Positions 10,601-36,660 of a stretch of 64,000 nucleotides of DNA are shown here, in pieces. Under the pieces are notes generated by a model. That model made no database searches and had not been told where the DNA came from. It saw only the letters and a program-made list of their open reading frames with translations. Source of the DNA: Chitinophagaceae bacterium UBA1930. Lineage in GTDB: Bacteria > Bacteroidota > Bacteroidia > Chitinophagales > Chitinophagaceae. The stretch spans positions 1-64,000 of the forward strand of contig DDFK01000003.1 in NCBI GenBank assembly GCA_002337145.1. Reading direction: 5' to 3'. Made by a program: the position numbers and the translations under genes. Each line of letters opens with the position of its first letter. Position 1 is the first letter of the stretch.

Positions 10601-10624
10601 AGTTTGAAAACGTGAAAATGATAA

Positions 10625-12285: not shown

Positions 12286-12306
12286 TCATTTTTAAATATC
12301 ACAGCT

Positions 12307-14289: not shown

Positions 14290-14381
14290 CCATTCAAAAT
14301 ACCAAACAATCCGAATGTTTTAATTAAGTTTACGTCTGCAAAAGGGGATTTAAAGCGTCCCCTTAAACAAATAAAAACTTA

Positions 14382-15968: not shown

Positions 15969-15969
15969 G

Positions 15970-19938: not shown

Positions 19939-21368
19939 CAACAAACAACCTTGTACAGAAAATATGGTCATTTTGCGATACGTTGCGGGATGATGGCTTG
20001 GGATACAATGATTATCTTGAGCAGCTAACTTATCTGCTGTTTCTCAAAATGGCCGATGAGAATAAAAATAAATACAGCTTGCCGGACATCTGTGACTGGA
20101 AGAGCCTTGTAGCCAATAAAGGCGGGGAACTACTGGATCAGTATGAGAAAATATTGAAAACACTTGCAGATTCCGGCGGCATGTTAAAAAAGATTTTTTC
20201 AGGTGCACAAAATAAAATTCATGACTCATCAAAATTGCAGCGCCTTATTAATCTGATTGACGAAGAAAATTGGACATCCACAGGTTACGATATCAAAGGG
20301 GAAATTTACGAGTCACTGCTCCAAAAAAATGCTGAAAATAGTGGAGCTGGTCAATATTTTACTCCAAGATCCGTAATTCAAACCATAGTCGAATGTATAA
20401 AACCTCAGCCTTCAGAAACGATAGCAGATCCCTCCTGCGGCACAGGTGGCTTTTTTTTAGGCGCACTGGAATATTTAAATAGAAGTAAGCTGAGCCAAAC
20501 AGAACTAAAATTTATAAAGTTTGATACATTTCATGGATGGGAAATAGAAAAGGCAACAGCACGCCTTTGCTTAATGAATCTTTACTTGCATGGTGTAGGT
20601 GACCTGAAAAAGACACCTGATATACAGGTTACGGATAGCTTGAAAGCAAGCGACATTAAAAAAGTAAAAATAGTATTGGCTAATCCACCTTTTGGCAAGA
20701 GCAGTAGTGATATTCCTACGAACGACGCAAAAATGGCCGAAAAAGATGGATATTTTTTAAGAGAAGATTTCTGGGTAACAACAAGTAACAAGCAACTTGC
20801 TTTCTTACAACACATAGTGAATATGTTGGAGGATAATGGCCGTGCTGCCGTTGTTCTGCCAGATAATGTACTTTTTGAAGGAGGCGCTGGTGAAATAATC
20901 CGTCGCAAACTTCTCGAAGACGTTCATTTACATACTATTCTGCGATTGCCTACGGGTATTTTTTACGCCCAGGGAGTCAATGCCAATGTACTGTTCTTTG
21001 ATAAAAAGCAAGTTTCTAAAAAGACAAAAAAAGAAGTTTGGTTATACGACTACAGAACAAATATTCATCATACCCCTAAAAAGAATCCATTGTCCTTTAA
21101 CAGCCTATTGCCGTTCATTGAGTGTTATAACGAAAAGAAAAGGAAGGAAACATGGGGACAAGACAATCCACAAGGACGTTGGAAAAAATATAGCCATGAG
21201 GAGATATTAGCCAGAGATAAAGTAAATTTTGACATAACCTGGCTTAAAGATGGAAATTCAATTGATATGGATGCATTACCAGAACCAGATGTATTAATTG
21301 GTGAAATCATAGATAACTTAGAAATCGTACTCAACAACCTGAGAAATGTAAAGGATTCGGTGTCGTAA
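19935..21368 (+). CDS. hsdM: Type I restriction-modification N6-adenine DNA methyltransferase subunit
   Basis: Contains the LANPPFG (NPPF) catalytic motif and the SAM-binding DPSCGTGGF motif. The HsdM N-terminal domain is present. Confidence 0.9.
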   Translation: MTTNNLVQKIWSFCDTLRDDGLGYNDYLEQLTYLLFLKMADENKNKYSLPDICDWKSLVANKGGELLDQYEKILKTLADSGGMLKKIFSGAQNKIHDSSKLQRLINLIDEENWTSTGYDIKGEIYESLLQKNAENSGAGQYFTPRSVIQTIVECIKPQPSETIADPSCGTGGFFLGALEYLNRSKLSQTELKFIKFDTFHGWEIEKATARLCLMNLYLHGVGDLKKTPDIQVTDSLKASDIKKVKIVLANPPFGKSSSDIPTNDAKMAEKDGYFLREDFWVTTSNKQLAFLQHIVNMLEDNGRAAVVLPDNVLFEGGAGEIIRRKLLEDVHLHTILRLPTGIFYAQGVNANVLFFDKKQVSKKTKKEVWLYDYRTNIHHTPKKNPLSFNSLLPFIECYNEKKRKETWGQDNPQGRWKKYSHEEILARDKVNFDITWLKDGNSIDMDALPEPDVLIGEIIDNLEIVLNNLRNVKDSVS

Positions 21369-21373
21369 TCAAC

Positions 21374-23023
21374 ATGACTGAATATGAAAAAATAAGAGCG
21401 TTTGAATATGATGTTTTAGACCAGCATTATAAGAACTACTTATTTTATCAATATCCAGATGATATAGTAATCCCATATTTGTTGCAGACTTATGGAGATA
21501 CTGAAAGGCATAGAGACAATTTAGTTCGCACTGGCCATGATGAAACCAGCTTGTCTTTCTATTTGAACAATATGCTTCATGGTTTAGGCCATTGCATACG
21601 ATGGATGGTTAATAGTAATAGTTCAGAAATTAAAGAAGTCTCAAATCTCACATATAGGCAGATACATGAAATGGCTGCTGATTTTCTTGGCTGGGGAACG
21701 GGCTATCATATGATTGCGCAGGAATTTGTTACATGGTCACGCGGCATTAAGGAAGCGATGCTGGACGAGGATAAAAAAACTATTACATTTATTAATCCCA
21801 ATGGCTACGAGTACAGTAAAATCTACGGAAGCCAATTATTATATGCCAAAAGGATGGCAGCAATATTTAATAGCTATCCGCATGAAGAAATGGACAAAGA
21901 ATTCGGCGAATGGATTCGAGAAATAGATTTTACTAAGCCTCCAATAGTCAACCATATTAAATGGCAACGAGGAAGAAGTTCTGTATCATATCCTCTACTA
22001 TGTTTAAAGATGAGGGATTTACTATTCCCTGAATTGGCTGAAACAACAGACTTTCAAGGGTATAATCTCCAGCAGCTTCGTCAATTTTACGCCCTTGTTT
22101 TCCTAAATTTTCATTTCATTCGGTGGGTTGAAGCAGAATTAGATTCGCGTGCCGGGGATGATAATTTGTCTTTTGGTTCTAACCCTCTTGAACTGAACCA
22201 ACAACAGTTTGAAAAATTTATTTCAGATATTACAGGGCTTGCATTAGATGTGTCAAGAGCAATTATTGCCGATCTGACATTTGATCCTTCCAGTTTTCAT
22301 ACGAGCGTTAGCATTCAACCTTTTATTCGTTCGCTCTCTGGAAATTATCACATATTGCCCAACTTATTTGCACAGTTAGAACCTTCCAGAATGATTCTTG
22401 GTGCCTTAAATAAAGGGCCAAAGAAAAGGATATACGGTACTTTAATTAACACAATCGAAAAAGTAAACCTGAGCTTGCTATATGATTCAATTAGAGGTAT
22501 CGAAGGTAGTATTTGTTATCTCGAAAAGCAGATTAAACACAATGGGCAAACGATAACACCTGACCTAATACTGATAGATACTATAGAGAAGCTCTTATTG
22601 GTTGCCGATTACAAACATTTTATTGGCCCTATAACAGCTTCTGAAGTTGATTATAAGATGAGGGAACTTGAAAAAGCCATCAATCAGGTGACAAAATATA
22701 TTGAACATCTTTCCCTGTTCCCGAAGGTTGATTTACTAAATATTGAGGGGTTCTCCGTTGTTGGGCTGATCATTACACACAAACTTTTGCCTGTTCTCAT
22801 TCCAAAAAAGGAATCAATTCCAATTGTTGATATGGAATCATTTATGGAGGATACTAACTTCATAATCCAAAATAATCAGCATTTACATGCTTTAGCACAG
22901 AAAGTACAGACAGATTCTGCGAAAGCTTCCGAAGTTGAGTTTAATGATTTTGAATCAGAAATTAATGTTAGTGATTGGATAATTAAGCGAGCTCAACATA
23001 AACTCAATTTAAAAAGAAAGTGA
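21374..23023 (+). CDS. Hypothetical protein with a C-terminal PD-(D/E)xK-like nuclease motif
   Basis: No recognisable N-terminal domain. Near the C-terminus, PDLILIDTIEKLLLVADYK gives PD-x15-DYK spacing as in restriction-endonuclease-fold proteins. Co-oriented with hsdM, 6 bp downstream of it. Confidence 0.4.
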   Translation: MTEYEKIRAFEYDVLDQHYKNYLFYQYPDDIVIPYLLQTYGDTERHRDNLVRTGHDETSLSFYLNNMLHGLGHCIRWMVNSNSSEIKEVSNLTYRQIHEMAADFLGWGTGYHMIAQEFVTWSRGIKEAMLDEDKKTITFINPNGYEYSKIYGSQLLYAKRMAAIFNSYPHEEMDKEFGEWIREIDFTKPPIVNHIKWQRGRSSVSYPLLCLKMRDLLFPELAETTDFQGYNLQQLRQFYALVFLNFHFIRWVEAELDSRAGDDNLSFGSNPLELNQQQFEKFISDITGLALDVSRAIIADLTFDPSSFHTSVSIQPFIRSLSGNYHILPNLFAQLEPSRMILGALNKGPKKRIYGTLINTIEKVNLSLLYDSIRGIEGSICYLEKQIKHNGQTITPDLILIDTIEKLLLVADYKHFIGPITASEVDYKMRELEKAINQVTKYIEHLSLFPKVDLLNIEGFSVVGLIITHKLLPVLIPKKESIPIVDMESFMEDTNFIIQNNQHLHALAQKVQTDSAKASEVEFNDFESEINVSDWIIKRAQHKLNLKRK

Positions 23024-23090
23024 AGCTTTTAATAACGAGAAGGGATATAATGCGACCCTTTTTGCAGATGAAAATATAAAGAGCTACAAA

Positions 23091-26000
23091 ATGAATGGTC
23101 AATTAAATCGCTCCGAGGAGGTACGAAAGGCAAAAGAGGAATCTGAAAGGTCAGATTTGAAGCAACATGCCGATAAAATGCTTCGTGATTTTGAAAAGTT
23201 CAATGACTTTTCTTCAAACAGAGCAATCTGGGAACTGGTTCAGAACGCCTGTGATTTAACCGTACATTGTGAGGTTACCATAGACTATAGATACAATAAA
23301 TTCTTGTTCACTCATAATGGACGGGCATTTAATTCTAATTCGCTTATTTCCCTCGTTAAGCAAGTGTCAGGCGATAAGGACGAGAATAGTGAAATACCAC
23401 CAGTAGGTAAATATGGCACCGGTTTTCTAACTACTCATTCTCTGGGCAGAAAATTTATTATCAATTCAATTTTGCAATCTTCTTCAGGACATTTTATTGA
23501 AATAAACGATTTTCTCATAGATAGAAGTCCTAAAAAATGGGAAGAATTAAGTGAGCAGATCAGGTTACAGAAAGATCGAGTTTTTGAGATCATAGATAAA
23601 ACCGGAAAAATTATTGAGCATCCTGAGCAGCGGACAACTTTTACATACTTTCCGGAGACTGAACAAGAGATAAAGTACGTTGCTGAATCCTATCGCGACC
23701 TCGAAGAGTACGTTCCAATAGTCATAACTATAAATAGCAGGCTTAAGTCTGTTAAAGTAATTTCGCCTGATGGCGATGTGACTGATTTTACCATGTCCAG
23801 CAAACAAGAAATACCGAATGAAGCAGGCATTAAACTCTATAAAACGTCAATCAAGAAAAATGGTGAGGATAAGGTCATATACTCAATTGCAGAACCTGAC
23901 AATGAAATCGAAATTATCTTACCCATAGATAAGGATCTAACCCTATTCGATTTGCCCAAGCGGGTTGCAAGGTTGTTCCTTTACTATCCTTTGATTGGTA
24001 CGGAAGGCTTCGGCATTAATTTCATCATTAACTGTAATCAATTCCTGCCAACGGAACCAAGAGATGGAATACATCTTAACAGCAACAAGGATCAGGTTAA
24101 AGATCAGGAAGAGGCAAACAAGCTTTTGATAGACAAAGCCTCTGAACTTCTATTTAGATTCCTAAATAGCAATATCCTGGTGGTGAAAAACCCATTGCTG
24201 TACGCCAACATTAATTTCAAACGAACAACTGACAATGTTCTGCTGAATAAATATTTTGTTGACCTACAGGAAAAATGGGTAAGCCATTTTAAGAATCTTG
24301 AAATAGTTGAGACTAAAACAGGCCACAAGAAGGTTGCGGAGGTCACCTTTCTTGACCCAGAGTTATTGGGTAAAGAAGAATATTTCGATTGTATATACTA
24401 CTTATTTGATAAATTCTATACTGACATTCCTTCTCAGGGGACAATTAAGTACTGGAGCCTTTTTGTAAATAAATGGGAATATTCTGAAGCTACTTTCATA
24501 AGCAACGATGATATAACGAAACAAATACAAGAATGTTCCCTAACTGATTTTGATGACCGGCTGCTTAAAAAATACTACGGATATTTGTTAGGCGAAAGGC
24601 ATACCGATCTTTTCACGGAAAATAGATTGTTGCCAAACATAGACGGCGAATTTCAGTATCTGAACAACTTAAAGCAACCTCGTGATTTGGATAGCCAATT
24701 GGTAAATGTTGGCAAAACTCTTATTGCCGACGCAATATCTCAACTGGTCAACAAAGATTTCTCTTTTGATTTCAAATTTGATACTTATGGAAGAAAAGAC
24801 TTTACAAATAGTGTTAATGCAAAGTTGAGCAATGAATTTATCGACAATTGCATTTGCTTACCGGAGGTCTACAACACTGATGATTACATCACAGATGTGG
24901 AAGTCAATTCGGCCCTTTTGGATAGGAACTACTTTTTAGCGGTTCTGAACTTTTGTAAACTACAAAACAATATTAATTCACATAGCAAGCCCTCAAAGTT
25001 GATGGGGCTAATAAGCGACTATTACCATATTGATAATAGGCTTGTACATATTGAACCTGTAAGTAATAAGGAAGATGATATTGATATACGACAGGCTCAA
25101 AAAAATCTTGTAAGGGTATTCTTCAGTACGTTGGCCAAGCATACTCAAGTATGGATTAAAAACAATACAGCGTTACTACTTGAAATTGCACTTTATAATG
25201 AAGACCGATATAAAGATGTTTATTCAACATCAAAAATATATCCAAACCAGCTTTACAAGCTTTGCTATCTTGCAGAATTGAAGAAGGCGATCAACCTTGA
25301 TGATTATATAATCGACTTGTATAACAGGACATCTGGTAAAACCATTGAAGGGTCACTCGTTGAGACCAATTTCAATGAGTTCCTTGTTGAAAATGAAACG
25401 GTAATGAATAAAACTCTGTCAAGCGCAATTGAAGAAGTTTTCTTCGAGACAGACATCCGTGATATCAATGAACACCCTTTTAAAGAAGATATCCTGATTA
25501 TTATAGCAAAATTAAACACAGTTACTTACAAAGAGCTTTTCCCTCGCTTAGACGATAAAAAGGCAAACTTAATGTTGGATATTGTCACTAACGAAAATAC
25601 CAAAGATGATATTTTTGCAATCGTGACTTTGAAAGAAGAACAACTAAAGAAACTTGGAAAAATTGTTCAATCACCCAACTTTGAAGAAATACTCTCTAAA
25701 GCTGAAGATGCAATAAGATTAGAAAAGGAAAGAAGATCCGACTTTGAACACAAATATAAAATAGGAACCTACATTGAAGACAAAATACGCGAAAAGCTTG
25801 GAGTCGCTATTTCATCCAAGCTTCTGGTAGATAAGGATAAAGAGATAGGTGCGGAAGATGTTCAAGGGGGGCAGGATATTATAATATCCTATGATGAAAC
25901 TGCGCTATATTTTATAGAGGTAAAATCAAGATGGGATTCCAGGAATTCAGTTTCAATGAGTAAGTTACAATTGGAAAGGGCTTCCGAGAATGTTGACAGG

Positions 26001-26294
26001 TATTCTCTCGTGTCAGTGGATGTTACTAAGTATAAGGGTACAAATGACAGATATGAGCTTCCGTTAAATGAAATAATCCCCTTAATAAAAGTGGTTGATA
26101 AAATTGGGCAAAATGTCCATCCGCTGATTACTAACAATCTTGTTGCTGAACGTGACCTGTCTTCTGCTGTCAAACTGATTGATTATAGAGGTATTGTTAA
26201 CCAAGATTTCATTAATGCGGGTACTGATTTTGACACTTTCTTGGATACTTTAATAGAATATTTGAAACTTGCTGTATCTAATATGAAACCCTAA
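23091..26294 (+). CDS. GHKL (Hsp90/MORC-type HATPase) plus C-terminal DUF3883-like nuclease domain protein (NO VEIN-like)
   Basis: Bergerat-fold motifs WELVQNACD (motif I), THNGRAF (motif II) and GKYGTGF (motif III). A C-terminal DIIISYDETALYFIEVKSRWD segment fits D..E.K of DUF3883/PD-(D/E)xK. There is no Walker A motif and no helicase motif, so this is not HsdR. Confidence 0.55.
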   Translation: MNGQLNRSEEVRKAKEESERSDLKQHADKMLRDFEKFNDFSSNRAIWELVQNACDLTVHCEVTIDYRYNKFLFTHNGRAFNSNSLISLVKQVSGDKDENSEIPPVGKYGTGFLTTHSLGRKFIINSILQSSSGHFIEINDFLIDRSPKKWEELSEQIRLQKDRVFEIIDKTGKIIEHPEQRTTFTYFPETEQEIKYVAESYRDLEEYVPIVITINSRLKSVKVISPDGDVTDFTMSSKQEIPNEAGIKLYKTSIKKNGEDKVIYSIAEPDNEIEIILPIDKDLTLFDLPKRVARLFLYYPLIGTEGFGINFIINCNQFLPTEPRDGIHLNSNKDQVKDQEEANKLLIDKASELLFRFLNSNILVVKNPLLYANINFKRTTDNVLLNKYFVDLQEKWVSHFKNLEIVETKTGHKKVAEVTFLDPELLGKEEYFDCIYYLFDKFYTDIPSQGTIKYWSLFVNKWEYSEATFISNDDITKQIQECSLTDFDDRLLKKYYGYLLGERHTDLFTENRLLPNIDGEFQYLNNLKQPRDLDSQLVNVGKTLIADAISQLVNKDFSFDFKFDTYGRKDFTNSVNAKLSNEFIDNCICLPEVYNTDDYITDVEVNSALLDRNYFLAVLNFCKLQNNINSHSKPSKLMGLISDYYHIDNRLVHIEPVSNKEDDIDIRQAQKNLVRVFFSTLAKHTQVWIKNNTALLLEIALYNEDRYKDVYSTSKIYPNQLYKLCYLAELKKAINLDDYIIDLYNRTSGKTIEGSLVETNFNEFLVENETVMNKTLSSAIEEVFFETDIRDINEHPFKEDILIIIAKLNTVTYKELFPRLDDKKANLMLDIVTNENTKDDIFAIVTLKEEQLKKLGKIVQSPNFEEILSKAEDAIRLEKERRSDFEHKYKIGTYIEDKIREKLGVAISSKLLVDKDKEIGAEDVQGGQDIIISYDETALYFIEVKSRWDSRNSVSMSKLQLERASENVDRYSLVSVDVTKYKGTNDRYELPLNEIIPLIKVVDKIGQNVHPLITNNLVAERDLSSAVKLIDYRGIVNQDFINAGTDFDTFLDTLIEYLKLAVSNMKP

Positions 26295-26491: not shown

Positions 26492-26577
26492 GGAGCGTTG
26501 ACCGAAACGGTAAGGTACTGGTATGCTAAACCAAGGTTGGGGTAACACCCAAGTAAGTTCGATTCTTACACGCTCCG
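26492..26577 (+). tRNA. tRNA-Ser (anticodon GCU), class II with a long variable arm
   Basis: Acceptor ggagcgt/acgctcc forms 7 perfect base pairs. U8 is present. 3-bp D-stem acc/ggt with a loop containing GG. Anticodon stem tggt/acca with loop atGCTaa (U33, A37). Variable stem gggt-aac-accc. T-arm gtaag-ttcgatt-cttac. Discriminator g. No encoded CCA. Confidence 0.65.
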
Positions 26578-26611
26578 CTTACACCCTCTCCTTTAAGAGG
26601 GGTTGGGGAGA

Positions 26612-26687
26612 GGTGCTTTGGCAGAGATGGTTCTACTTGCATTACTCTGAAGAAGTAATTATCTGAGTTCGATTCTCAGGGGCACCA
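26612..26687 (+). tRNA. tRNA-like sequence, possibly tRNA-Phe(GAA) or a pseudo-tRNA
   Basis: Acceptor ggtgctt/gggcacc has 5 Watson-Crick and 2 G-U pairs. Perfect anticodon stem ttact/agtaa with loop cuGAAga. Perfect T-arm ctgag-ttcgatt-ctcag. The D-loop is 12 nt (atypical). The 5' part overlaps a hairpin cctctcc...ggagagg. Total length 76 nt. Confidence 0.35.
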
Positions 26688-26909
26688 CATTATATAACAA
26701 CCAAAAAACACAGCTATGCGTGTACTTGTAATGAAATAGTTGATACCACAATTCAACTATACATATTAACCATTATTAAGAAAAAGCTGATGTAGCCAGC
26801 TGCATTGCTGCTATTGAGCACCGGTTGCGTCGCACCCATCAACACCTTATTGTTTATTGGGCAACACACAATCAACATCACTTTACACAATAGTACAAAC
26901 CAAAACAAC

Positions 26910-28076
26910 ATGATACCAATTATAATACTCATCGTACTTGCAAGGCTTATTGTTGCTGCATTTCCGGCAATGAGGCAAGCATTTCAATTACAATGGCAAA
27001 GAATAAAACAAGCATTGAAAAAAAGAAAAATGGTGGGTCTGTTCGACGAACACTTTATTGAAGCCAAAGCTTTTTATTTCAAGGAATTTAAAACCATTCC
27101 GTGTATTGCCTACATAGGTGGTGTAAACACAGGTGAAATTTTTAAGCTGATTCAAGAAGGCAAATACGGCAAGGTAGAAGCAACCTATCAACGCAACTAT
27201 TACAACTGGCAACAGGAACGGATAGAGTTTGCCAAAACCATCTTTAAACTGGAAAACAACATGATGGTAAAGCTGGGTGACGATTGGTTGGAAATATTGT
27301 TTAGCAACAAAGATTACGACAAGGCCAACAATATGCTGCACGAGTTCAAAACATTGAAAGCTCCGCAAAAGGAAGATGATTACGAGATCAACATCATATC
27401 CCGAAGCGGCGGCTCATTGGATCTTAAGACACTTGCAATAAAGCCCACACCATTGGATCTGGACCTTTATTACAATAATGATTTCAAGGCAGTAGATGCC
27501 ACCATTAAAGAAAGGTTACTGAAAGCAAACGACAAAGGCATTGTATTGCTGCACGGCCTGCCCGGTACCGGTAAAACAACCTACCTAAGACACTTGATCG
27601 GCAATATGAAAAAGCAGGTAATGTTTGTATCGCCCAGCGTAGCCGACAACTTGATGAACCCGGAGTTTATGGATCTATTGATAGATAACCCAAACTCCAT
27701 ACTGGTAATTGAAGATGCAGAGAACATTATCATGGACAGAAGGTTCAGCAGCCAAAGTAGCGTAAGCAACCTGCTGAACATAAGCGATGGTTTACTGAGC
27801 GACTGTTTGAACGTACAGATCATCTGCACATTTAACAGTGACCTGAACATGGTAGACAGTGCCCTGCTACGCAAAGGAAGGTTGATAGCCAAGTACGAGT
27901 TTGGCAAACTGCATGTAAGCAAAGCAAGGGCATTGAGCCAGCACTTAGGCTTGCAGCAAGAGATAAACAAACCCATGACTTTGGCAGAGATCACCAACCC
28001 GGGCGAAACCCATTACCAACCTAAACAGGTAAACGTAATTGGCTTTAGAAGAATGGAAGAATTGATTGAAAACTAA
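26910..28076 (+). CDS. AAA+ ATPase with an N-terminal transmembrane anchor
   Basis: Walker A LLHGLPGTGKTTYL, Walker B ILVIEDAEN, and a sensor/arginine finger in DSALLRKGRL. A hydrophobic N-terminus (MIPIIILIVLARLIVAAF) is present if the start is at 26910. The ORF extends to 26805, but that extension covers a repeated 17-mer and looks non-coding. Confidence 0.7.
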   Translation: MIPIIILIVLARLIVAAFPAMRQAFQLQWQRIKQALKKRKMVGLFDEHFIEAKAFYFKEFKTIPCIAYIGGVNTGEIFKLIQEGKYGKVEATYQRNYYNWQQERIEFAKTIFKLENNMMVKLGDDWLEILFSNKDYDKANNMLHEFKTLKAPQKEDDYEINIISRSGGSLDLKTLAIKPTPLDLDLYYNNDFKAVDATIKERLLKANDKGIVLLHGLPGTGKTTYLRHLIGNMKKQVMFVSPSVADNLMNPEFMDLLIDNPNSILVIEDAENIIMDRRFSSQSSVSNLLNISDGLLSDCLNVQIICTFNSDLNMVDSALLRKGRLIAKYEFGKLHVSKARALSQHLGLQQEINKPMTLAEITNPGETHYQPKQVNVIGFRRMEELIEN

Positions 28077-28097
28077 TGCCACGCACAGCTTGCTGTT

Positions 28098-28604
28098 GTG
28101 TGGCATACAAAACCAAACAACATGCAACAGCGGCAATGGCGGCGGTTAAATGGATCCATTATTAAAACATCTATTGAAGATGAAGTAAGATCCATGCTGA
28201 TAAAAGAAAGGGAACACGGTAACCATATCAAAGTATGCATTGGTACCGATAGCCAGGTTAAAAACAGGGAAACGGAATTTGCAACGGTAATTGTATTTGT
28301 ACGTAAAGGCAAAGGTGCTTTTATGTACATACACAACGAAACCACCCAACGCAAAATGCCCATCAAAGAGCGTATGCTGGACGAGGTTTCCCGGAGCATT
28401 GATGTAGCTTATAGCTTATGCAAGCTCTTCATTGCTTTTAATGTGGACATGGAAATACATGCAGACATCAACACCAATCCAAATTTCAAAAGCAACAGTG
28501 CTTTAAAAGATGCCATGGGCTACATCATGGGTATGGGTTTTGCCTTCAAGGCCAAGCCACATGCTTTTGCCAGCAGCCAATGTGCAGACAGGATGGTGCA
28601 TTGA
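28098..28604 (+). CDS. YkuK/DUF458-like RNase-H-fold protein
   Basis: Contains HIKVCIGTDSQVKNRETEFATVIVF, resembling the conserved acidic core (IGTDS) I recall for DUF458 RNase-H-like proteins. 168 aa; start uncertain. 21 bp downstream of the ATPase on the same strand. Confidence 0.45.
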   Translation: MWHTKPNNMQQRQWRRLNGSIIKTSIEDEVRSMLIKEREHGNHIKVCIGTDSQVKNRETEFATVIVFVRKGKGAFMYIHNETTQRKMPIKERMLDEVSRSIDVAYSLCKLFIAFNVDMEIHADINTNPNFKSNSALKDAMGYIMGMGFAFKAKPHAFASSQCADRMVH

Positions 28605-28831
28605 AATACCGGATGGTTCACACTCTTGGCATGAGCCACTCTTTTAAAATATGGTTGCTGTAAATAGCAACACAAAAGCTTGCCCAACGGCAAGAAGGGT
28701 TTATTACATAACAGCACAAACCAGATGCGAGTTTACAAAGCTCCGTAGTACAGACGTAATAACTATCTGTATGCTATTGAATGTTATGGATAGGTCCTCC
28801 ATCCGCCAATGTCTCAAAAACAATGGCCTTT

Positions 28832-28910
28832 AGTCACAGGTTCGAATCCTGTTCCATCTGTATAAGATGGATAGTTCAGCGGTAGAACACTACACTGTCA
28901 CTGTAGAAAA
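28832..28910 (+). ncRNA. Circularly permuted tRNA-Asp-like element
   Basis: The T-arm acagg-ttcgaat-cctgt plus the 3' acceptor strand tccatct-g are followed by a 4-nt linker (tata). Then come the 5' acceptor strand agatgga (7 of 7 pairs with tccatct), U8-A9, D-arm gttc-agcggta-gaac, and the anticodon arm ctaca-ctGTCac-tgtag (anticodon GUC, U33, A37). This is the 3' portion placed before the 5' portion. Confidence 0.35.
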
Positions 28911-29218
28911 GAAGGAGACCATCGCTCCTTTATCAAATGATGACCAGGTAACAAAAGCAGGTGCACTGAATCGGCAGCTTTTATACGTCTTAGCAGAGGA
29001 TAGTAAAAGCCGCAACAATTCAATCGGCACTTTGCAAGAAGCAAACAACAATGCAGCATGTATGGCTTTTACTGCAATCGTTTACTGAAGATACATCAGT
29101 AAGCAATTAAGGAACAACCCCTGCACTACGTATTGTATCCATCTTCTTCCGTAATGGTAGAATGATTCAATGCAACTGCTTTTACATTTTTAATGAACAA
29201 AAAACAAAACAAACTATT

Positions 29219-30316
29219 ATGAAAAACATAAACATTAACGCCTACCAAGTAGGTTTGGTTTTTAAGAAAGGTGTGTACCAACGCATGTTACAAGAAGGTA
29301 GCTATTGGTTGTGGAACGAACAGGTAATTGTATACGACAAATTCAAACCATTTGACCCATCAGTTGATTTGGGCGTCTTTTTGCAGGATGCCGAATTGGC
29401 CAATGCATTGCATGTGGTAGATGTTATGGACAATGAGATTGTGTTGATGTACGAGAACAACCTGTTGAAACAAGTATTGCAGGCTGGCCGTTATGCATTC
29501 TGGAAAACCTCTACAGACTTGCGTTTCGTAAAAGCCGACATCAGCAAAATTGATATTGACCAAAGCATTGCACCAAATACTTTGACCAACAAATTGGTAG
29601 TTGGTTATGTACGTACCTCTACAGTTGAAAGCTACGAGAAAGCATTGCTGTTTGTAGATGGTAAATACCAGCACATTTTGGATAGCGGTGTATATTACTG
29701 GTGGAAGAACAATACCATTGTTACAGTGGGTAAAGTGGATATGCGTCAGCAACAAATCGAGATCAATGGCCAGGAGATTTTGACCAAAGACAAAGCTGCT
29801 TTGCGTATCAATGCCTTTGCACAGTACAAAGTAGTTGATATTGAGAAAGCCTTGTTGCAAAACAAAGAGTACGACAAACAATTGTACGTTGCTTTCCAAC
29901 TGGCTTTGCGTGAGTACATTGGCAGCATGGGCTTTGACGAGCTGTTGGAAAAGAAAGATACCATTGCCGCTTTTGTACAGGAACGTGTAAACAGCAATGC
30001 CGCAGCATTGGGTATTGAAGTGGCCGGTTTCGGTATCCGTGACATCATATTGCCTGGCGATGTAAAAGACATCATGAACCAGGTATTGGTAGCGGAGAAG
30101 AAAGCACAAGCCAACACCATCATGCGTAGGGAAGAAACAGCGAGTACCCGTAGCCTGTTGAACACAGCCAAACTGATGGAAGAAAACGCCATGTTGTGGA
30201 AGCTGAAAGAAATGGAATACGTGGAAAAGATTGCCGACAAGATCAGCAACATCAGTGTTAACGGAAACGGTGACCTGGTGGGTCAGTTGAAGCAGATCTT
30301 TGTACCCCAGAAATAA
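29219..30316 (+). CDS. SPFH/band-7 (slipin-family) protein
   Basis: C-terminal half matches the SPFH/prohibitin core (ILTKDKAALRINAFAQYKVVDIEKAL ... GIEVAGFGIRDIILPGDVKDIMNQVLVAEKKAQAN). Start assigned to MKNININAYQ; the upstream ORF extension is probably non-coding. Confidence 0.8.
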   Translation: MKNININAYQVGLVFKKGVYQRMLQEGSYWLWNEQVIVYDKFKPFDPSVDLGVFLQDAELANALHVVDVMDNEIVLMYENNLLKQVLQAGRYAFWKTSTDLRFVKADISKIDIDQSIAPNTLTNKLVVGYVRTSTVESYEKALLFVDGKYQHILDSGVYYWWKNNTIVTVGKVDMRQQQIEINGQEILTKDKAALRINAFAQYKVVDIEKALLQNKEYDKQLYVAFQLALREYIGSMGFDELLEKKDTIAAFVQERVNSNAAALGIEVAGFGIRDIILPGDVKDIMNQVLVAEKKAQANTIMRREETASTRSLLNTAKLMEENAMLWKLKEMEYVEKIADKISNISVNGNGDLVGQLKQIFVPQK

Positions 30317-30317
30317 C

Positions 30318-30352
30318 ATGAGTGGTTCACTCTTTCAGAGTGAGCCACTCTT
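30318..30352 (+). terminator. Stem-loop after the SPFH gene (gagtggttcactc-tttcag-agtgagccactc)
   Basis: 13-bp near-perfect inverted repeat immediately after the stop codon. A related copy lies at 28611-28645, after the DUF458 gene. Confidence 0.4.
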
Positions 30353-30496
30353 AATAAGTGCTGATGAACGTTCCGAACGTTGATGGGTGCGACGCAACAG
30401 GCGATGCCATGAAACACTGCAGCCCGTTACATAAAAACAACAACAAGAACAAAGCATCATTGCTACTCATAGCAATGATGCATCAACCAAACAACA

Positions 30497-31933
30497 ATGA
30501 GCAAATTAAAAATAACAGCCAAAGAGCTGCGGACAATCGGTTACCCCGAAAGCCCGGTAATTCCTGTTGCCATGAATGCAATGGAAAAACATTATAAACA
30601 CAACACAAAGGAGGAAGTAATGGGGATTTTAAAAGCGGTGCTGGCATCTCCTATTGAATACAAGAATGATGCAGTACTTGGAATGATAGCAGAAAAGCTA
30701 TTGCCCAAAGAAGATGTAGGTGAACCGGAAATTTCATTGAACAATACAGGCGTTCACTTCAACACTTTTGGTGCGGAACATATTGAGCAGGGTGCATTCC
30801 ATCAAATGTACAGTGCGGTTAAACTGCCCATTGCTGTTGCAGGTGCATTGATGCCCGATGCACACCACGGTTATGGACTGCCAATTGGCGGCGTGTTGGC
30901 AACAGACAATGCAGTGATACCCTATGGCGTTGGTGTGGATATTGGTTGCCGCATGTGCTTGAGCATTTTTGATATTGATGCCAAAGAGCTGACAAACAGG
31001 GAGCAATATTTTGCAAGGGAGATAAACGAAGCAACCTTATTTGGTAGCGGTGCCATGTTTAAACAGGCAGATGACCATGAAGTGATGGAGAACGAAGCAT
31101 TCTTTAGTACACCCTTGCTGAAAGGCTTGCATGGCAGGGCCTGGAAGCAGTTGGGCACTTCTGGAAGCGGTAACCACTTTGTGGAATTTGGTGCCGTGAC
31201 CATTACGGAGAAAGACGAAATACTGGGCGTTGAACCTGGTAACTATATAGGTTTGCTGAGCCACTCTGGCAGCAGGTCTTTGGGTGCAAGGATTGCAGAG
31301 CATTACACCAAAATTGCTATCAGCAAAAGGCGTTTGCCACAAGATGCAAAGAACCTTGCATGGTTGAACATGAACGAAGAAGCAGGCATGGAATATTGGA
31401 TTGCCATGAATTTGGCAGGCGATTATGCGAGTGCATGCCACCATATCATTCATGCAAAGATTGCAAAACAGTTGGGCCGCAAACCAATGAAAGTGGTAGA
31501 GAACCACCACAACTTTGCATGGAAGGAAATGCTGGATGGCAAGGAAGTAATTGTGCACCGTAAAGGGGCCACGCCTGCCGGTAAAAATGTGTTGGGCATC
31601 ATTCCCGGTAGCATGACCGCTGATGGCTTTATTGTGAAAGGCAAAGGTGAAGTAGCGTCTATTAATTCTGCAAGCCACGGTGCGGGTAGAAAGATGAGCC
31701 GTACACAGGCCTTGGCCAACATAACACACAATGCATTGAAAGATGAATTGGCAAAGTTTGGCGTTAAGTTGTTGGGTGGTGGTTTGGACGAAGCCCCGTT
31801 TGCTTATAAAGACATTAACGAAGTAATGCAATCGCAAACTGCATTGGTGGATGTGGTGGGCAAGTTCACACCAAAGATTGTGAAGATGGATGGCACGCAA
31901 CCGAAACAATGGAAGAAAGGGAAGCCTGAATAA
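30497..31933 (+). CDS. rtcB: RNA-splicing ligase RtcB (3'-phosphate/5'-hydroxyl RNA ligase)
   Basis: Metal-binding and GMP-histidine motifs are present: MPDAHHGYGLPIGGV, GVDIGCRM, GSGNHF, LSHSGSR, VENHHNFAW, IIPGSM and SASHGAGRKMSR. Alignable to E. coli-type RtcB from memory. Carries an N-terminal extension of ~60 aa; start uncertain. Confidence 0.9.
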   Translation: MSKLKITAKELRTIGYPESPVIPVAMNAMEKHYKHNTKEEVMGILKAVLASPIEYKNDAVLGMIAEKLLPKEDVGEPEISLNNTGVHFNTFGAEHIEQGAFHQMYSAVKLPIAVAGALMPDAHHGYGLPIGGVLATDNAVIPYGVGVDIGCRMCLSIFDIDAKELTNREQYFAREINEATLFGSGAMFKQADDHEVMENEAFFSTPLLKGLHGRAWKQLGTSGSGNHFVEFGAVTITEKDEILGVEPGNYIGLLSHSGSRSLGARIAEHYTKIAISKRRLPQDAKNLAWLNMNEEAGMEYWIAMNLAGDYASACHHIIHAKIAKQLGRKPMKVVENHHNFAWKEMLDGKEVIVHRKGATPAGKNVLGIIPGSMTADGFIVKGKGEVASINSASHGAGRKMSRTQALANITHNALKDELAKFGVKLLGGGLDEAPFAYKDINEVMQSQTALVDVVGKFTPKIVKMDGTQPKQWKKGKPE

Positions 31934-31957
31934 TTTTAAATAGCAAGCTTTGAACAG

Positions 31958-31992
31958 GCCCCTGTTGCTATATAGCAGCAGGGGTTTTTGTT
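31958..31992 (+). terminator. Rho-independent terminator after rtcB
   Basis: gcccctgttgc-tatata-gcagcagggg followed by ttttt. Confidence 0.55.
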
Positions 31993-32067
31993 TCAAAATA
32001 CCCAATTACTGGTATGCACAAAACCAATGAGAAAATTTACTTTGTAGGTTCTTAGTAAAGCATCGAT

Positions 32068-35000
32068 ATGAAAAAAATACTACTGCTTGTATTCTTTGCA
32101 ATGGCAGGCTTAGCTGCATACACACAATCATTCTTGGACCTGAACAACCAGTTTATGGAACTGTACCAAAAGGGGCAGTACAAAGAAGCACTGGGCATTG
32201 GTTCAAAAGCAATGATACAGGCAAAAAAGGAATATGGCGAACAGCACATCAACTATGCCATTGCAGTGCACAACCTTGCCGAATGCCATTATGCATTGCA
32301 GGCATGGAAGCAGGCACTGCCCCTATACCATCAGGCCGTAAAGGTTTATACCATTGCACAAAAAACAACAGCTACAACCGAGGTTGCCTTATGCAACAAC
32401 AATATTGGCAACATTTACCTTGTACAAAAAAAATACGATTCATCTGCCATCTTTTTCGAGCAGTCATTTGAATTTTTTATTACCAACATAGATGAGCAAT
32501 ACAACAATGCCATAGGTGTAATGAACAACCTCACTTCATTATACATTCCCTTAAAAATGTACACCGCCGCCGTAAACGTGTACAACAAGATACTACCAAC
32601 AATAGAAACTAAAGAAGGCATAACAAGCGAAAACTACAATGCTACCAATACCAATCTCATATCATCCTTACATGGACTTTCAGCATACAAAAAAGCAGTG
32701 GCCTGTTTAGGTATGAAACGTGCAGGTCTTGTCAAGACCAAAGGGACAGCATCTGCTGAACTGGCCCTCTGCGACAACGAGATTGGCAACGACTACCTGA
32801 TACTGGAGCAATATGATTCTGCCAGCGTTTACTTTGAGCAATCCTTTAGCTACTTTATTGCACATGCCAATGAACAATATGAAAATGCCATTGTATTATC
32901 CAACAACCTCTATGCCCTGTACACTACAACCGACAAGAACAAAGAGATATGCTCGGTATTTGAAAAGATAGTACCCGTTATCATTGCCAAAGAAGGCAAG
33001 GGCAACCAAAATTATATAACGGCAATAACCAATTGGGGCACTTCCTTATACCTACTAAACCAATATGCTACGGCCGAAAAATACATGCGTGAAATTGTAG
33101 CATATTACGAAAGCAATAAGAAGGACAATTCAACGGCCTATGCCGATGTATTATGCATACTCGCAAAGTCTTTAAGGAAACAGGAGAAGCTAGACGAGGC
33201 ATTCCTATGTTATAACAAGGCAAACAAAGTGTACAATACCGTCTATAAAACAGAGAACAACGATAATACCGCTATCAACTTAAACAATATGGGCGACATC
33301 CTGCTAAGCCAGGACAAGTTCGATTCTTCTGCCACTTGTTTCGAAAAAGCATTTACTTATTTCCTCCGCAAGCCCAACGAAAAATACGAGACACTTGTAT
33401 TGATCATGCACAACCTATCGGATCTATACATACCCATTGGCAAATACAAAGAAGCAAAAACAGTTTTTGAAAAAATGCTGCCTGTTATTGAACGTGTGGA
33501 AGGCAAGGAGTTTAAAGAAAATTATACATATGCCATTTTCAATCTAGGTTCGGCATTGTACTATTTGCAGGACTATGCATTAAGTGAAACCTATGCACGC
33601 AAAGGCCTTGCAGGTATTGAAAAAATAAAGGGCAAAAACAATACGGACTATACCGATTTTTTGGACATGCTTGCCAATAACCTAAACGAGCAAAGCAAGT
33701 TTGAAGAAACAGAACAGGTATTGACACAATCCTTGCAGATAAAAAAATCCCTGCCCAAACAAGACAGCCTTAACCTGGCAATAAGCTATGGCGGTTTTGG
33801 CAACCTGTATTCCTCATCGGGCAACTATAAAAAATCGTTTGAATATTTTGATACGGCCATTAATTTACTAACCGCTTCGGGGCATGAAGACGATGCAGAC
33901 TATGTGGTATTACTACGCAATTTTGGCTATGCCTATATTGAAGGGGGGCGTTTGTTGGAAGCAAAAAAAACATTGTCAAAAGCACTGGCCATACAGGAAA
34001 AGCTATATGGGAAAAATTACCCCGTTAATGGTGAGTTACTCATTTCCATAAGCAATGCCGAAGTACAACTGAACGAACTGACGGATGCCGAAGAGCATGT
34101 GCAGCAAGGGCTGGATGTAGTGCTGGCAGCCTATGGCGAAAATTATTATACAGCGGCAAAGGCAAAAGAAGTAATGGCAATGATTAACCAAAAAAGGGGC
34201 AACAACACCCGGGCCATTACCTTATACAAAGAAGCATTGGCCATTAACACAAAAATATTTGGCGAAGAAAGCAAGCATACTGCATCGGCCTTTTCCAACC
34301 TCGGTACGGTATATGAAGAGATAGGCAACTTTGCCGAAGCAGAACCCTTTCTTCAAAAATCGGCTGACATAAGAAAAAAGATCTATGGCGACAACCACCC
34401 CGATTATGCCATAAGCCTTAGCAACTTGGCCCTGCTATATATTTATGAAAACAAGTACAAAGAAGCAGACGACATACTGATTAAAGCACTTAACATCTAT
34501 ACAAAAAGCGGACTGGAAGAAACCAACAACTTCATGTCCATCATTAACAATATTGCTTTTATGGCCGCAAGGCAGGGCCTGTTGGATCAAGCGAAAAAAA
34601 TATACTTACAATTACTTACCATACTTGAATCAAAGGGAGACAGAAGAAGCTCTGCCTACTATTTGGTATTGAACAATATTGCAGCCAATTGCATTAGCCA
34701 AGAAAACTATGACGATGCCATTACCTACGGCTTAAAAGCTGTAGCATACGCAAAAAAATACCAAGGCATTAAAACATTGGAGTACATTAAATCTACCAAC
34801 AACTGCCTGGTAGCCTATAAAGGAAAAGGCGATTACGAAAAAGCATACCAATTGGCAAAAGAGTTGCTTCCGCTTTGCAAAGAAGTAATGGGCAATGAGG
34901 CTGCCCTTACCGGAACAGTCTACTCCAATATTGCATTGCTCGAAAATCAGCGGAACAATCCCGAACAGGCATTTGATTATTTGAACAAAAGCCTGCAGAT

Positions 35001-36660
35001 TTCTATGGATGCATTCAGGAAGAATTTTTATACGCTAAGCGAAAAAGAAAAACTCAATTGGTGGGATGGCGAATCTGCATCCTTTGCCTTTTTTCCTTCG
35101 TTACTGATAGAACATCCAGCATTGGCAGCAACAGCAACCGGCTACCTCACCAATATACAGATGCAACTGAAGAATTTTATCCTAAACGATGCATCGGCCA
35201 CTTTACGCAAAGCCAGAACCAGCAATAATGCAGCATTAAACAAGATATTGGACAAATGGCAACTCAATAGGTCCATCATTAGCAAACAGCTGTCCATGCC
35301 TGTTACAGAACGCATCTATAAAACAGACAGCATTGAAGCAGTAGCCAATGAATTGGAAAAAAGCATTAACCAACAGGCTGCCGGTCTCATTAAAATAAAC
35401 CAGCAAAACGATATTACCTGGCAGGCCGTTCAGTCATCCTTAAAAGAAGGCGAAGCCGCAGTGGAGTTCATCAGCTTTCCATTTTACCGCCAATCAAAAT
35501 TTACCGATACCATTCAATATGCAGCCATTGTTATACGCAAAAATGAAGCACCCAAATTTGTGCCGCTTGCCACAGAAAAGCAGGTCAATTGGTGCCTTAC
35601 AGGTGGCAAGGTAAACAGCAAGGAAACACGCATCAATAGTTTGTACAGAAGCTCTATAAAAAGTGGCAGCAACGAAACCTTTGCTGGCGACAGTTTATAC
35701 AACATCATCTGGAAGCCACTTATACCCTACCTGCAAAACATCAGTACGGTTTCCTACTCGCCAGATGACTTATTGCATAAGGTAGCATTTCATGCACTGC
35801 CAATGGGCAAAGACAAATTGTTGCTGGATGCATACCGCTTGCAGCAATACACCAGCATAAGACAGCTTACCGAAAAAGCAAACGAAACAACCAAATGGAA
35901 TGCTGCCTACCTAATGGGCAATGCCGATTTTAATACCCTGCCAGTAAAAGCATCGGCTGAAACGATTGCCACAGGCAGCTTTACCAGCAACCACAACAAC
36001 GAAGCGTGGGTGCCCCTACCGGGTACCGAAAAAGAAATCAATACGCTGCAACCGTTACTGGTTTCAAAAGGTGCAACTGTTACAGCTACAAGTGGTATCA
36101 ATGCTACCGAAGAAAAATTCAAGTTGCTCAACAACCATTCGCCAGCGTTGATACACTTGGCCACGCATGGCTTTTTTCTACCCAACCTTCAACTAAAGAA
36201 AAGCTTGGGTACTGTTGACAATGCTGCCAATAACTATGCCTTGTCCGACGATCCATTAATGCGTAGCGGTGTTATCATGGCGGGTGCAAACAAAGCATGG
36301 AGCGGGCAAAAGATACCATCCAATACAGAAGACGGTATTGTTACTGCTTATGAAATTGCCCAATTGAATTTGACTGGTACAAAACTGATTGTATTGAGTG
36401 CCTGCGAAACGGCACTGGGCGATTTGCAGGGAACTGAAGGCGTGTTTGGCTTGCAGCGAGCCTTTAAAATTGCCGGTGTAAAAAATTTGATCGTAAGTCT
36501 TTGGCAAGTGCCCGACAAGGAAACAGCAGAACTGATGGGTATTTTTTACAGTAACCTGTTAAGTGGATTGCCTGTTAGGGATGCTTTCTATAAAGCACAA
36601 AAAGAAATGCGGGGCAAGTATCCACCTTATTCATGGGCAGCCTTTGTGTTGATTGAATAA
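32068..36660 (+). CDS. Giant secreted TPR-repeat protein with a C-terminal CHAT (caspase-like) protease domain
   Basis: Signal peptide MKKILLLVFFAMAGLAAYTQ. About 1100 aa of TPR-like repeats (recurring YNNLG.LY, A..Y.KAL motifs). The C-terminal CHAT domain has the catalytic dyad context: HLATHGFF (His) and LIVLSACETALGD (Cys). Confidence 0.8.
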   Translation: MKKILLLVFFAMAGLAAYTQSFLDLNNQFMELYQKGQYKEALGIGSKAMIQAKKEYGEQHINYAIAVHNLAECHYALQAWKQALPLYHQAVKVYTIAQKTTATTEVALCNNNIGNIYLVQKKYDSSAIFFEQSFEFFITNIDEQYNNAIGVMNNLTSLYIPLKMYTAAVNVYNKILPTIETKEGITSENYNATNTNLISSLHGLSAYKKAVACLGMKRAGLVKTKGTASAELALCDNEIGNDYLILEQYDSASVYFEQSFSYFIAHANEQYENAIVLSNNLYALYTTTDKNKEICSVFEKIVPVIIAKEGKGNQNYITAITNWGTSLYLLNQYATAEKYMREIVAYYESNKKDNSTAYADVLCILAKSLRKQEKLDEAFLCYNKANKVYNTVYKTENNDNTAINLNNMGDILLSQDKFDSSATCFEKAFTYFLRKPNEKYETLVLIMHNLSDLYIPIGKYKEAKTVFEKMLPVIERVEGKEFKENYTYAIFNLGSALYYLQDYALSETYARKGLAGIEKIKGKNNTDYTDFLDMLANNLNEQSKFEETEQVLTQSLQIKKSLPKQDSLNLAISYGGFGNLYSSSGNYKKSFEYFDTAINLLTASGHEDDADYVVLLRNFGYAYIEGGRLLEAKKTLSKALAIQEKLYGKNYPVNGELLISISNAEVQLNELTDAEEHVQQGLDVVLAAYGENYYTAAKAKEVMAMINQKRGNNTRAITLYKEALAINTKIFGEESKHTASAFSNLGTVYEEIGNFAEAEPFLQKSADIRKKIYGDNHPDYAISLSNLALLYIYENKYKEADDILIKALNIYTKSGLEETNNFMSIINNIAFMAARQGLLDQAKKIYLQLLTILESKGDRRSSAYYLVLNNIAANCISQENYDDAITYGLKAVAYAKKYQGIKTLEYIKSTNNCLVAYKGKGDYEKAYQLAKELLPLCKEVMGNEAALTGTVYSNIALLENQRNNPEQAFDYLNKSLQISMDAFRKNFYTLSEKEKLNWWDGESASFAFFPSLLIEHPALAATATGYLTNIQMQLKNFILNDASATLRKARTSNNAALNKILDKWQLNRSIISKQLSMPVTERIYKTDSIEAVANELEKSINQQAAGLIKINQQNDITWQAVQSSLKEGEAAVEFISFPFYRQSKFTDTIQYAAIVIRKNEAPKFVPLATEKQVNWCLTGGKVNSKETRINSLYRSSIKSGSNETFAGDSLYNIIWKPLIPYLQNISTVSYSPDDLLHKVAFHALPMGKDKLLLDAYRLQQYTSIRQLTEKANETTKWNAAYLMGNADFNTLPVKASAETIATGSFTSNHNNEAWVPLPGTEKEINTLQPLLVSKGATVTATSGINATEEKFKLLNNHSPALIHLATHGFFLPNLQLKKSLGTVDNAANNYALSDDPLMRSGVIMAGANKAWSGQKIPSNTEDGIVTAYEIAQLNLTGTKLIVLSACETALGDLQGTEGVFGLQRAFKIAGVKNLIVSLWQVPDKETAELMGIFYSNLLSGLPVRDAFYKAQKEMRGKYPPYSWAAFVLIE

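Follow-up and report, generated by a model that had tools for sequence, protein, structure and literature searches.

A window of 64,000 nucleotides from Chitinophagaceae bacterium UBA1930 (GenBank assembly GCA_002337145.1, contig DDFK01000003.1, positions 1 to 64,000, forward strand) contains a row of genes for an AAA ATPase, a DUF458 protein, an SPFH/Band-7 (slipin) protein and the RNA ligase RtcB, with a long non-coding spacer between DUF458 and SPFH. Is this row, here called the cassette, a conserved unit or a chance juxtaposition, and what might it do? An earlier note on this DNA had described five elements on one strand, closed by a strong terminator, and had suggested an RNA repair or stress module. 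The layout, on the + strand, was borne out by open reading frames (ORFs) and profile matches (Table 1). The note had overlooked the tRNA genes at 26492-26688, which belong to the unit, and the fact that the entire spacer is structured, beyond its tRNA-like part. It had also overlooked that the invariant pair is the spacer RNA and SPFH, with RtcB, DUF458 and AAA as frequent, optional partners.

One genome per species was scanned with an alignment of SPFH. Of 544 confirmed relatives the best 80, mostly Chitinophagaceae, were kept, and genome-locus counts refer to those 57 loci that have flanks of 5 kb or more on each side. An independent set of 119 contigs was obtained by searching metagenomes with a 31-nt motif of the RNA and nothing else; the window has a single copy of this motif compared to 0 expected by chance. 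The RNA has three domains, A, B and C, and domains A and B were found upstream of SPFH in 57/57 genome loci. SPFH lay 300-1500 nt downstream on the same strand in 73/73 metagenome contigs with at least 1.2 kb of downstream sequence. The invariant unit is the RNA and SPFH.

The other members were co-oriented with this pair in many loci. DUF458 was co-oriented in 45/57 genome loci and in 27/37 metagenome contigs with enough flank, RtcB (within 7 kb) in 43/57 and 14/17, and AAA in 39/57 and 23/37, respectively. At least one co-oriented upstream tRNA was present in 50/57 genome loci, and tRNAs were present in 34/37 metagenome contigs, with 360 tRNAs on the cassette strand compared to 2 on the opposite strand. 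All four proteins and the tRNAs occurred together in 32/57 genome loci. By tblastn AAA, DUF458, SPFH and RtcB were co-oriented in most of the best 80 relatives. The order of AAA and DUF458 was variable and the distance between SPFH and RtcB ranged from about 50 nt to about 6 kb; it is 180 nt in the window compared to about 54 nt in many relatives. Chance juxtaposition is excluded because the RNA-SPFH linkage is complete in both sets and co-oriented partners are frequent, and the expectation that the neighbourhood is kept in relatives was thereby upheld.

Accessory genes were also found in related loci. Two RlaP paralogs and a DinB_2 protein were encoded between SPFH and RtcB, and a 2H phosphoesterase and a radical-SAM protein upstream. 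A WYL-WCX regulator was encoded antisense in 11 related loci. RlaP was present in 12-13 of the 80 related loci and absent from the window. The cassette of the window is a reduced form: it lacks RlaP and has a single tRNA-like module and only two tRNAs.

The spacer forms a single ornate RNA of about 550 nt, and all three of its domains covary. Domain A, the 5' domain, is conserved and consists of several helices; its invariant core is AGUGCAG-N-CGUAGUAAC-N3-CUGUAUGCUGUUG. RNAalifold predicted 26 pairs for it. Compensatory changes were seen in 15 of these, and the + strand is fixed by invariant G-U pairs. A phage origin was considered and rejected, the domain A motif having 0 matches in viral contigs. 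Domain C is closed by a long-range helix of 28953-28960 with 29176-29183 (AAAAGCAG with CUGCUUUU) and has further long-range helices inside. Pair counts for domain C gave 87.3% of cells paired compared to 26-48% with the partner columns slid, and 18/21 pairs had changed on both sides. Conservation of domain C is patchy. Neither domain A nor domain C had an Rfam match at E ≤ 5.

Domain B is a permuted tRNA mimic. Its parts follow in the order T-arm (28836-28852, with GGUUCGAAUCC), 7-bp acceptor hairpin with a 5-nt loop (28853-28871), U8 and A9, D-arm with G18 and G19 (28874-28888) and anticodon-like arm (28890-28906), which has a 5-bp stem and the 7-nt loop CUGUCAC. The 3' part comprises a T-like hairpin (28912-28930) and a pseudoknot (28920-28923 with 28939-28942). 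In 32 sequences 86.8% of cells were paired compared to about 41% with the partner columns slid. Changes on both sides were seen in 23/32 pairs and 0/500 shuffles were equally good. The pseudoknot was less well supported (63% paired). The Rfam tRNA model matched 28866-28935 with 29.1 bits (threshold 29) with the acceptor pairs broken, and ARAGORN made no tRNA call there. The 5' strand of this tRNA-like stretch pairs with upstream sequence instead, and it is not a canonical tRNA gene. When the 6-kb region was searched alone, the Rfam YrlA model (RF02553) matched 28809-28924 with 39.9 bits (E 2.4e-6), which is below the gathering threshold of 69; relatives scored 30-45 bits. Covariation in the 32 sequences gave the YrlA topology of T-arm, closed acceptor stem-loop and D-arm. 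The outer stem of the Rfam YrlA alignment (28810-28815 with 28914-28919) was dropped because the local hairpin at 28912-28930 covaries. With the two Rfam matches and the covariation, the tRNA-derived structure that the earlier note had placed at 28605-29218 is real.

That note had also compared the structure to YrlA while finding no Ro60 gene, and this too held. No TROVE match was found in the scanned ORFs, a set made up of the cassette genes, the genes next to them and every window ORF similar in size to Ro60. The Ro60-binding motif GNCGAAN0-1G was absent from the window spacer and was found in 10/67 related spacers, at scattered positions. Two tandem tRNA-like modules were present in 96/156 related spacers under a strict T-loop pattern, while the window and its nearest relative have one. 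The free loop carries different 'anticodons' in different genomes.

SPFH, the protein partner of this RNA, matched PF01145 (Band_7) with 109 bits (cutoff 23.6, E 3.6e-31). It has three N-terminal five-strand beta repeats, the SPFH domain and a C-terminal helical region. The first beta repeat matches the start of the Band_7 profile and this is the only profile match of the N-terminal region. The structural model was confident for residues 1-175 only (pLDDT about 88). Fold matches were weak, the best being stomatin, HflK, prohibitin and erlin. A vault-like identity was rejected as the fold searches gave it no support. The protein had been described as a membrane scaffold, and this was not supported. 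The window sequence contains no hydrophobic stretch and no N-terminal membrane anchor of the stomatin/HflK type. A 19-residue span with a Kyte-Doolittle value of at least 1.6 was found in only 3/77 orthologs and in none of them at the N terminus. The protein is predicted to be soluble.

Full-length SPFH orthologs with 34-42% identity were found in Escherichia coli, Citrobacter, Burkholderia, Photobacterium and Subdoligranulum (37% over 365 amino acids for the proteobacterial copies). The Citrobacter locus (L200 6540-8913) has a divergent rtcR upstream, then a sigma-54-type promoter, a leader, slipin and RlaP. The E. coli locus (L201, CP061233.1, 6600-8925) has a sigma-54-type promoter (CTGGCACGCTTCTNGCA), a tRNA-like leader, slipin and RlaP. 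It is present in 1625/5426 complete E. coli genomes, between a DUF3811 gene and lysC. The leader of about 330 nt in both genera contains a T-arm and a closed acceptor hairpin, no RNA is annotated in either, and the Citrobacter leader had no Rfam match at E ≤ 1. In Burkholderia a sigma-54-type promoter, a T-arm and a near-complete tRNA-like unit are followed by SPFH, RtcB and RlaP. In Burkholderia multivorans (L203 7615-7741) this unit has normal topology, in contrast to the permuted chain of the Chitinophagaceae, and ARAGORN calls it 'tRNA-Phe(aaa)' of 70 nt. It is probably the 'b7a-tRNA' form predicted in 2016 (see below). Subdoligranulum has two T-loops and an acceptor hairpin followed by SPFH, RtcB and RlaP. 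In Citrobacter, E. coli, Burkholderia and Subdoligranulum the searches found neither domain A nor DUF458 or AAA at the locus.

These leaders bear on whether the spacer acts solely in cis, as a leader or processing signal within the SPFH mRNA, with no ribonucleoprotein (RNP) acting in trans. It could serve as RNase P/Z 'punctuation' between the upstream transcripts and the SPFH-RtcB message, or as a 5' untranslated region that tunes SPFH translation. The sigma-54-type promoters of Citrobacter, E. coli and Burkholderia lie upstream of the tRNA-like region, so that transcription makes this region the leader of slipin. In the window as in its relatives domain A begins no more than about 40 nt past the upstream stop, and some 35 nt separate the end of domain C from the SPFH ATG. 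A 7-bp closed acceptor stem made Mycobacterium smegmatis YrlA a substrate of RNase P, and this RNA receives CCA (PMC4201824). However, about 550 nt, three covarying domains and an invariant 30-nt core far exceed the needs of a processing site, and Ro60/YrlA is a precedent for a protein gene and an adjacent cognate RNA that form an RNP. A purely cis-acting role is the main alternative to the repair module described below, but is considered unlikely. It is also partly compatible with an RNP, because the proteobacterial promoters show the RNA to be made as a leader and a leader can be processed into a stable RNA.

The AAA protein matched PF00004 with 44.9 bits (cutoff 21.2, E 1.9e-11) and has the Walker A motif GLPGTGKT. 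It belongs to the classic clade, and its nearest relatives in the Protein Data Bank (PDB) are Afg2, Bcs1 and the proteasomal Rpt proteins. It had been called a membrane protein. The window protein does have an N-terminal transmembrane helix, followed by an N-domain of about 170 amino acids, but such a helix was found in only 13/51 orthologs. No protease domain was found in the profile search, and domain searches with the AAA N-domain and with the N-terminal extension of RtcB gave nothing usable.

An SPFH protein beside an AAA ATPase might also indicate membrane or protein quality control like that of HflK/C-FtsH, unrelated to RNA. SPFH assemblies partner AAA proteases, HflK/C-FtsH were among the fold matches, the window AAA has its transmembrane helix, and the cassette shares with HflK/C-FtsH and other such pairings an SPFH-family protein encoded with a classic-clade AAA ATPase. 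The cassette SPFH lacks a transmembrane segment, however, as do most of the AAA orthologs, and the AAA protein has no protease domain. AAA is also missing from 18/57 loci while the RNA is missing from none, which makes the RNA the obligate partner of SPFH and AAA an optional one. In other phyla the partners of SPFH orthologs are RtcB, RlaP or rtcR, and AAA is not among them. Quality control is a very improbable explanation.

The DUF458 protein matched PF04308 with 126.5 bits (cutoff 25, E 1e-36). Its model (pLDDT 77.7) has a beta-beta-beta-alpha-beta-alpha topology, and D43, E88 and D115 are invariant among homologs. The Foldseek list was mostly RNase HI with weak scores (E 0.02-0.07, TM score about 0.3). 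The family has earlier been placed in the RNase H1 clade (PMC3985635). The 168-amino-acid protein is thus of the RNase-H-like DUF458 family, as had been proposed, on the profile match and the model topology, the fold matches being weak. RtcB matched PF01139 with 273.3 bits (cutoff 27, E 5.7e-81) and RtcB structures in the PDB with E 2e-28. The motifs MPDAHHGYG, GVDIGC, GSGNHF, HSGSR and HRKGAT align with Pyrococcus horikoshii RtcB. Metal ligands and the guanylylated histidine were assigned from the known P. horikoshii enzyme. The cassette RtcB is a predicted 3'-phosphate RNA ligase. The extra N-terminal segment reported for it was confirmed, with about 56-74 additional residues compared to P. 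horikoshii RtcB and NF007153, and this extension is kept in orthologs.

In related loci co-oriented arrays of up to 15-16 tRNA genes lie directly upstream of the cassette, in the recurrent order Pro, Glu, Asp, Gly, Gln, His, Arg, Met, Ile(UAU), Ile(GAU), Val, Lys, Asn, Tyr, Ser, Ser, Cys, Phe, Trp. The Ser(GCU) and Phe(GAA) genes of the window fit members of this order. Ser(GCU) shares 80-88% identity with the Ser(gct) gene of the arrays, and Phe(GAA) has an enlarged D loop and the anticodon loop CUGAAGA (G37). The two genes appear to be the remnant of a co-oriented spare-tRNA array. The flanks of the cassette in the window differ from those in its closest relative (L002) and so do not date the loss of array tRNAs. 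Array size among relatives ranged from 0 to 16. Mean identity of array tRNAs with the same anticodon was 62-85% between loci (62% for Phe). Many anticodon loops break near-universal rules, with C37 in 11/37 His, U37 in 11/29 Asp, U37 in 8/17 Glu, C33 in 9/14 Pro and G32 in 15/49 Phe genes. Variable size, low identity between loci and abnormal anticodon loops suggest that the arrays are accessory and not housekeeping. Across the arrays examined (L001-L199) tRNA-Ile(UAU) was frequent and there was almost no encoded CCA. A few ARAGORN calls were odd, such as 'anticodons' of 2 or 4 bases and a Cys or Asp gene that was intron-sized.

How does the cassette compare with known systems? The operon rsr-yrlB-yrlA-rtcB-rtcA of Salmonella encodes Ro60 (Rsr) with the Y RNA YrlA. 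In both, the gene of a ring- or scaffold-type protein adjoins its cognate tRNA-like RNA and is encoded with RtcB. The order of T-arm, closed acceptor stem and D-arm is shared, and YrlA was the best non-tRNA Rfam match. The cassette differs in having SPFH in the place of Ro60, with no Ro60/TROVE gene in the scanned ORFs, and its anticodon-like arm is a closed hairpin and not a stem leading to a Ro60 site.

The earlier note did not recognise the arrangement as a described system. This does not stand for the core, because Burroughs and Aravind predicted in 2016, as quoted in a later paper (10.1101/312249), an association of RtcB with a Band-7 protein and a 'b7a-tRNA' (band-7-associated tRNA). The same quotation has YrlA occasionally beside Band-7. 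As far as that account goes, the cassette shares with this system a Band-7 gene with RtcB and an adjacent tRNA-like RNA, full-length SPFH orthology, and RlaP in related loci; the system so described does not require RlaP. It differs in its RNA of about 550 nt with the additional covarying domains A and C, in DUF458, AAA and the attached spare-tRNA arrays, and, in the window, in having no RtcR, sigma-54 promoter or RlaP. As far as the searches show, three features appear to be new: the three-domain RNA of about 550 nt, the partnership with DUF458 and AAA, and the physical attachment of aberrant tRNA arrays. Some of these additions may already be recorded in the 2016 work.

Translational stress in Anabaena induces rtcB along with a long tRNA array (PMC8421152), and the repressor TrcR controls a regulon, derepressed jointly under such stress, that includes this L-array, rtcB, a slipin and an AAA ATPase (PMC10272220). 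What the cassette shares are supernumerary tRNA arrays that spread horizontally and are functionally tied to rtcB and, by description, a slipin and an AAA ATPase. The Anabaena genes are dispersed under a common repressor, whereas here they form one co-oriented cassette, and with two tRNAs the window falls short of a long array of the L-array kind. Phage tRNAs evade anticodon nucleases through changes in the anticodon loop (PMC10264068). The cassette tRNAs resemble such sets as accessory tRNAs changed in the anticodon loop outside the anticodon, but they are chromosomal and bacterial, are not in viral contigs and are coupled to a ligase-based repair module. An SPFH gene is also contained in the rtc locus of Pseudomonas aeruginosa (PMC13086221), and RlaP repairs damaged tRNA ends by adding nucleotides to them (PMC12776372).

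The gene identities, catalytic motifs, conserved synteny, RNA structure by covariation and strict RNA-SPFH linkage are directly established. On this basis the cassette is probably a module for the repair and back-up of damaged tRNAs, centred on an SPFH-RNA particle. SPFH proteins oligomerise, and the soluble SPFH would do so as others do and most likely bind the RNA encoded directly upstream. By analogy with Ro60 and YrlA, the permuted tRNA mimic would recruit or present tRNA-handling enzymes. Cuts by ribotoxins leave 2',3'-cyclic-phosphate and 5'-OH ends, and RtcB would reseal tRNAs or rRNA cut in this way. The putative DUF458 nuclease and the AAA ATPase would be lineage-specific factors that trim, process or remodel damaged RNA or the RNP, and in relatives RlaP, 2H phosphoesterase and DinB would contribute more steps of end healing. 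The spare tRNAs, whose anticodon loops are altered, may be nuclease-resistant replacements or decoys. What we infer here is that an RNP forms, what the substrates are, what triggers the system and what DUF458 and AAA do. Repair is supported because the accessory genes of relatives (RlaP, DinB_2, 2H phosphoesterase) belong to RNA-repair families, which also fits the repair or stress role proposed earlier, and because the SPFH orthologs of Proteobacteria and Firmicutes have rtcR, RtcB and/or RlaP as neighbours.

Several points weigh against this repair module. RtcB, DUF458 and AAA are each lacking in 20-30% of loci, so that none is obligatory. The SPFH gene directly follows the RNA, which has no evident promoter or terminator of its own and could for this reason act only in cis. 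The SPFH core is poorly modelled, so the model is silent on the oligomer and on the RNA-binding surface. The window holds only two tRNAs, and these could be the only Ser(GCU) and Phe(GAA) genes of the genome. Wang et al. 2018 call the b7a-tRNA system experimentally unvalidated (10.1101/312249).

A bolder version of the repair module is put forward tentatively, as a doubtful possibility. In it the soluble SPFH assembly and the RNA would form a bacterial RNP not seen before that parallels Ro60 and Y RNA. Its tRNA mimics, often in tandem and with a variable 'anticodon', would be a bait or adapter that detects or titrates anticodon nucleases and hands cleaved tRNAs to RtcB, and the arrays would be a nuclease-resistant spare set, giving an organelle-like complex for 'tRNA immunity'. 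If true, testable 'tRNA immunity' orthologs would exist in about 30% of E. coli strains. The E. coli slipin locus, with its sigma-54-type promoter and tRNA-like leader, is a tractable model. The system of Band-7, tRNA-like RNA and RtcB has been a purely computational prediction since 2016. Within this analysis the present lineage has the clearest anatomy of it, with an obligate RNA-SPFH pair and a large RNA that is open to modelling and searching. This lineage also offers candidate processing or remodelling enzymes and a physical link to spare tRNAs with altered anticodon loops. One locus thus joins RtcB repair, Y-RNA-like tRNA mimicry and stress-induced cryptic tRNA arrays, and it bears on what bacterial RtcB repairs and with which cofactors.

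The surroundings of the cassette in the window raise another explanation. A mobilisable element and defence island at 9482-26294 on the + strand ends about 200 nt before tRNA-Ser (Table 1) and is not conserved beside the cassette elsewhere. No convincing att-site repeats linking the tRNAs to this island were found. Directly past the terminator, at 32068-36660, is the gene of a 1530-amino-acid protein with TPR and CHAT (caspase-like) domains, which is not conserved at the cassette among the 80 related loci. Left of the island the potassium-transport genes kdp lie on the - strand at 149-5603 (KdpA 3891-5603, KdpB 1813-3861) and are ordinary chromosomal context.

The cassette could accordingly be a toxin-antidote system for anti-phage defence or abortive infection, with DUF458 and AAA as a conditional toxin acting on tRNA or other RNA and RtcB and the spare tRNAs as the antidote. 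It adjoins AbiE, Type I restriction-modification, Septu and TmtA on one side and the TPR-CHAT gene on the other, and DUF458 keeps acidic residues of catalytic type. WYL-WCX regulators are common in defence loci, and they were antisense to the cassette in the 11 related loci mentioned above. However, the genes flanking the cassette in the window, the defence genes included, were never conserved beside it in the best 80 related loci. A known defence system was rejected, since PADLOC matched none of the four cassette proteins beyond P-loop level. The invariant pair is the RNA and SPFH and not a nuclease and a ligase, and the proteobacterial orthologs lie in the RtcR repair regulon. This explanation rests mainly on surroundings that are not conserved; a toxin-antidote role is judged quite improbable.

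Table 1. Positions of the cassette features and of the genes of the upstream island in the window
Feature	Position	Strand	Evidence or remark
Primase-like Toprim protein	9482-10381	+	
Relaxase	11005-12285	+	
TraG/TraD-type coupling protein	12307-14289	+	
AbiEi and AbiEii	14382-15968	+	
Type I restriction-modification S subunit	15970-17493	+	
Septu PtuA and PtuB	17438-19938	+	
Type I methyltransferase	19935-21368	+	
Unknown 549-amino-acid protein	21374-23023	+	
TmtA	23091-26294	+	PADLOC E 2.7e-282
tRNA-Ser(GCU)	26492..26578	+	ARAGORN; Rfam tRNA 46.8 bits
tRNA-Phe(GAA)	26612..26688	+	ARAGORN; Rfam tRNA 46.2 bits
AAA ATPase	ORF 26805-28076 (opens TTG 26805); likely 26910..28076	+	PF00004
DUF458/YkuK RNase-H-like protein	ORF 28098-28604 (opens GTG 28098); likely 28122..28604	+	PF04308
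Non-coding spacer	28605-29218	+	614 nt
RNA domain A	28641..28783	+	blastn, nhmmer, RNAalifold
RNA domain B, YrlA-type permuted tRNA mimic	28836..28943	+	Rfam, pair counts
RNA domain C	28953..29183	+	RNAalifold, pair counts
SPFH/Band-7 (slipin)	ORF from 29162; start ATG 29219; 29219..30316	+	PF01145
RtcB	30497..31933	+	PF01139
Intrinsic terminator	31956..31995 (stem 31956-31987)	+	14-bp stem, 7 G-C pairs, 4-nt loop, then T-run TTTTTGTTT

The starts in Table 1 were placed by comparison with homologs. The likely ATG of AAA was chosen because orthologs that carry the transmembrane helix begin at the equivalent methionine, and those of DUF458 and SPFH because their homologs have 160 and 365 amino acids, respectively.

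A Flavo-1 RNA (RF01705) match of 40.0 bits, compared to a threshold of 42, was found downstream of the cassette in one related locus (L055 9185-9257). Within the SPFH-RtcB spacer of the window there is a perfect 12-bp inverted repeat at 30454-30481 (GCATCATTGCTA...TAGCAATGATGC). A small-hairpin element of about 35 nt (GAGTG-N3-CACTC, ...GAGCCACTCTT) lies just 3' of both the DUF458 stop and the SPFH stop. It was found at about 28603-28648 and 30320-30352 in the window and at 4833-4870 and 8092-8139 in the nearest relative (L002), and may be an intercistronic processing or stability element.

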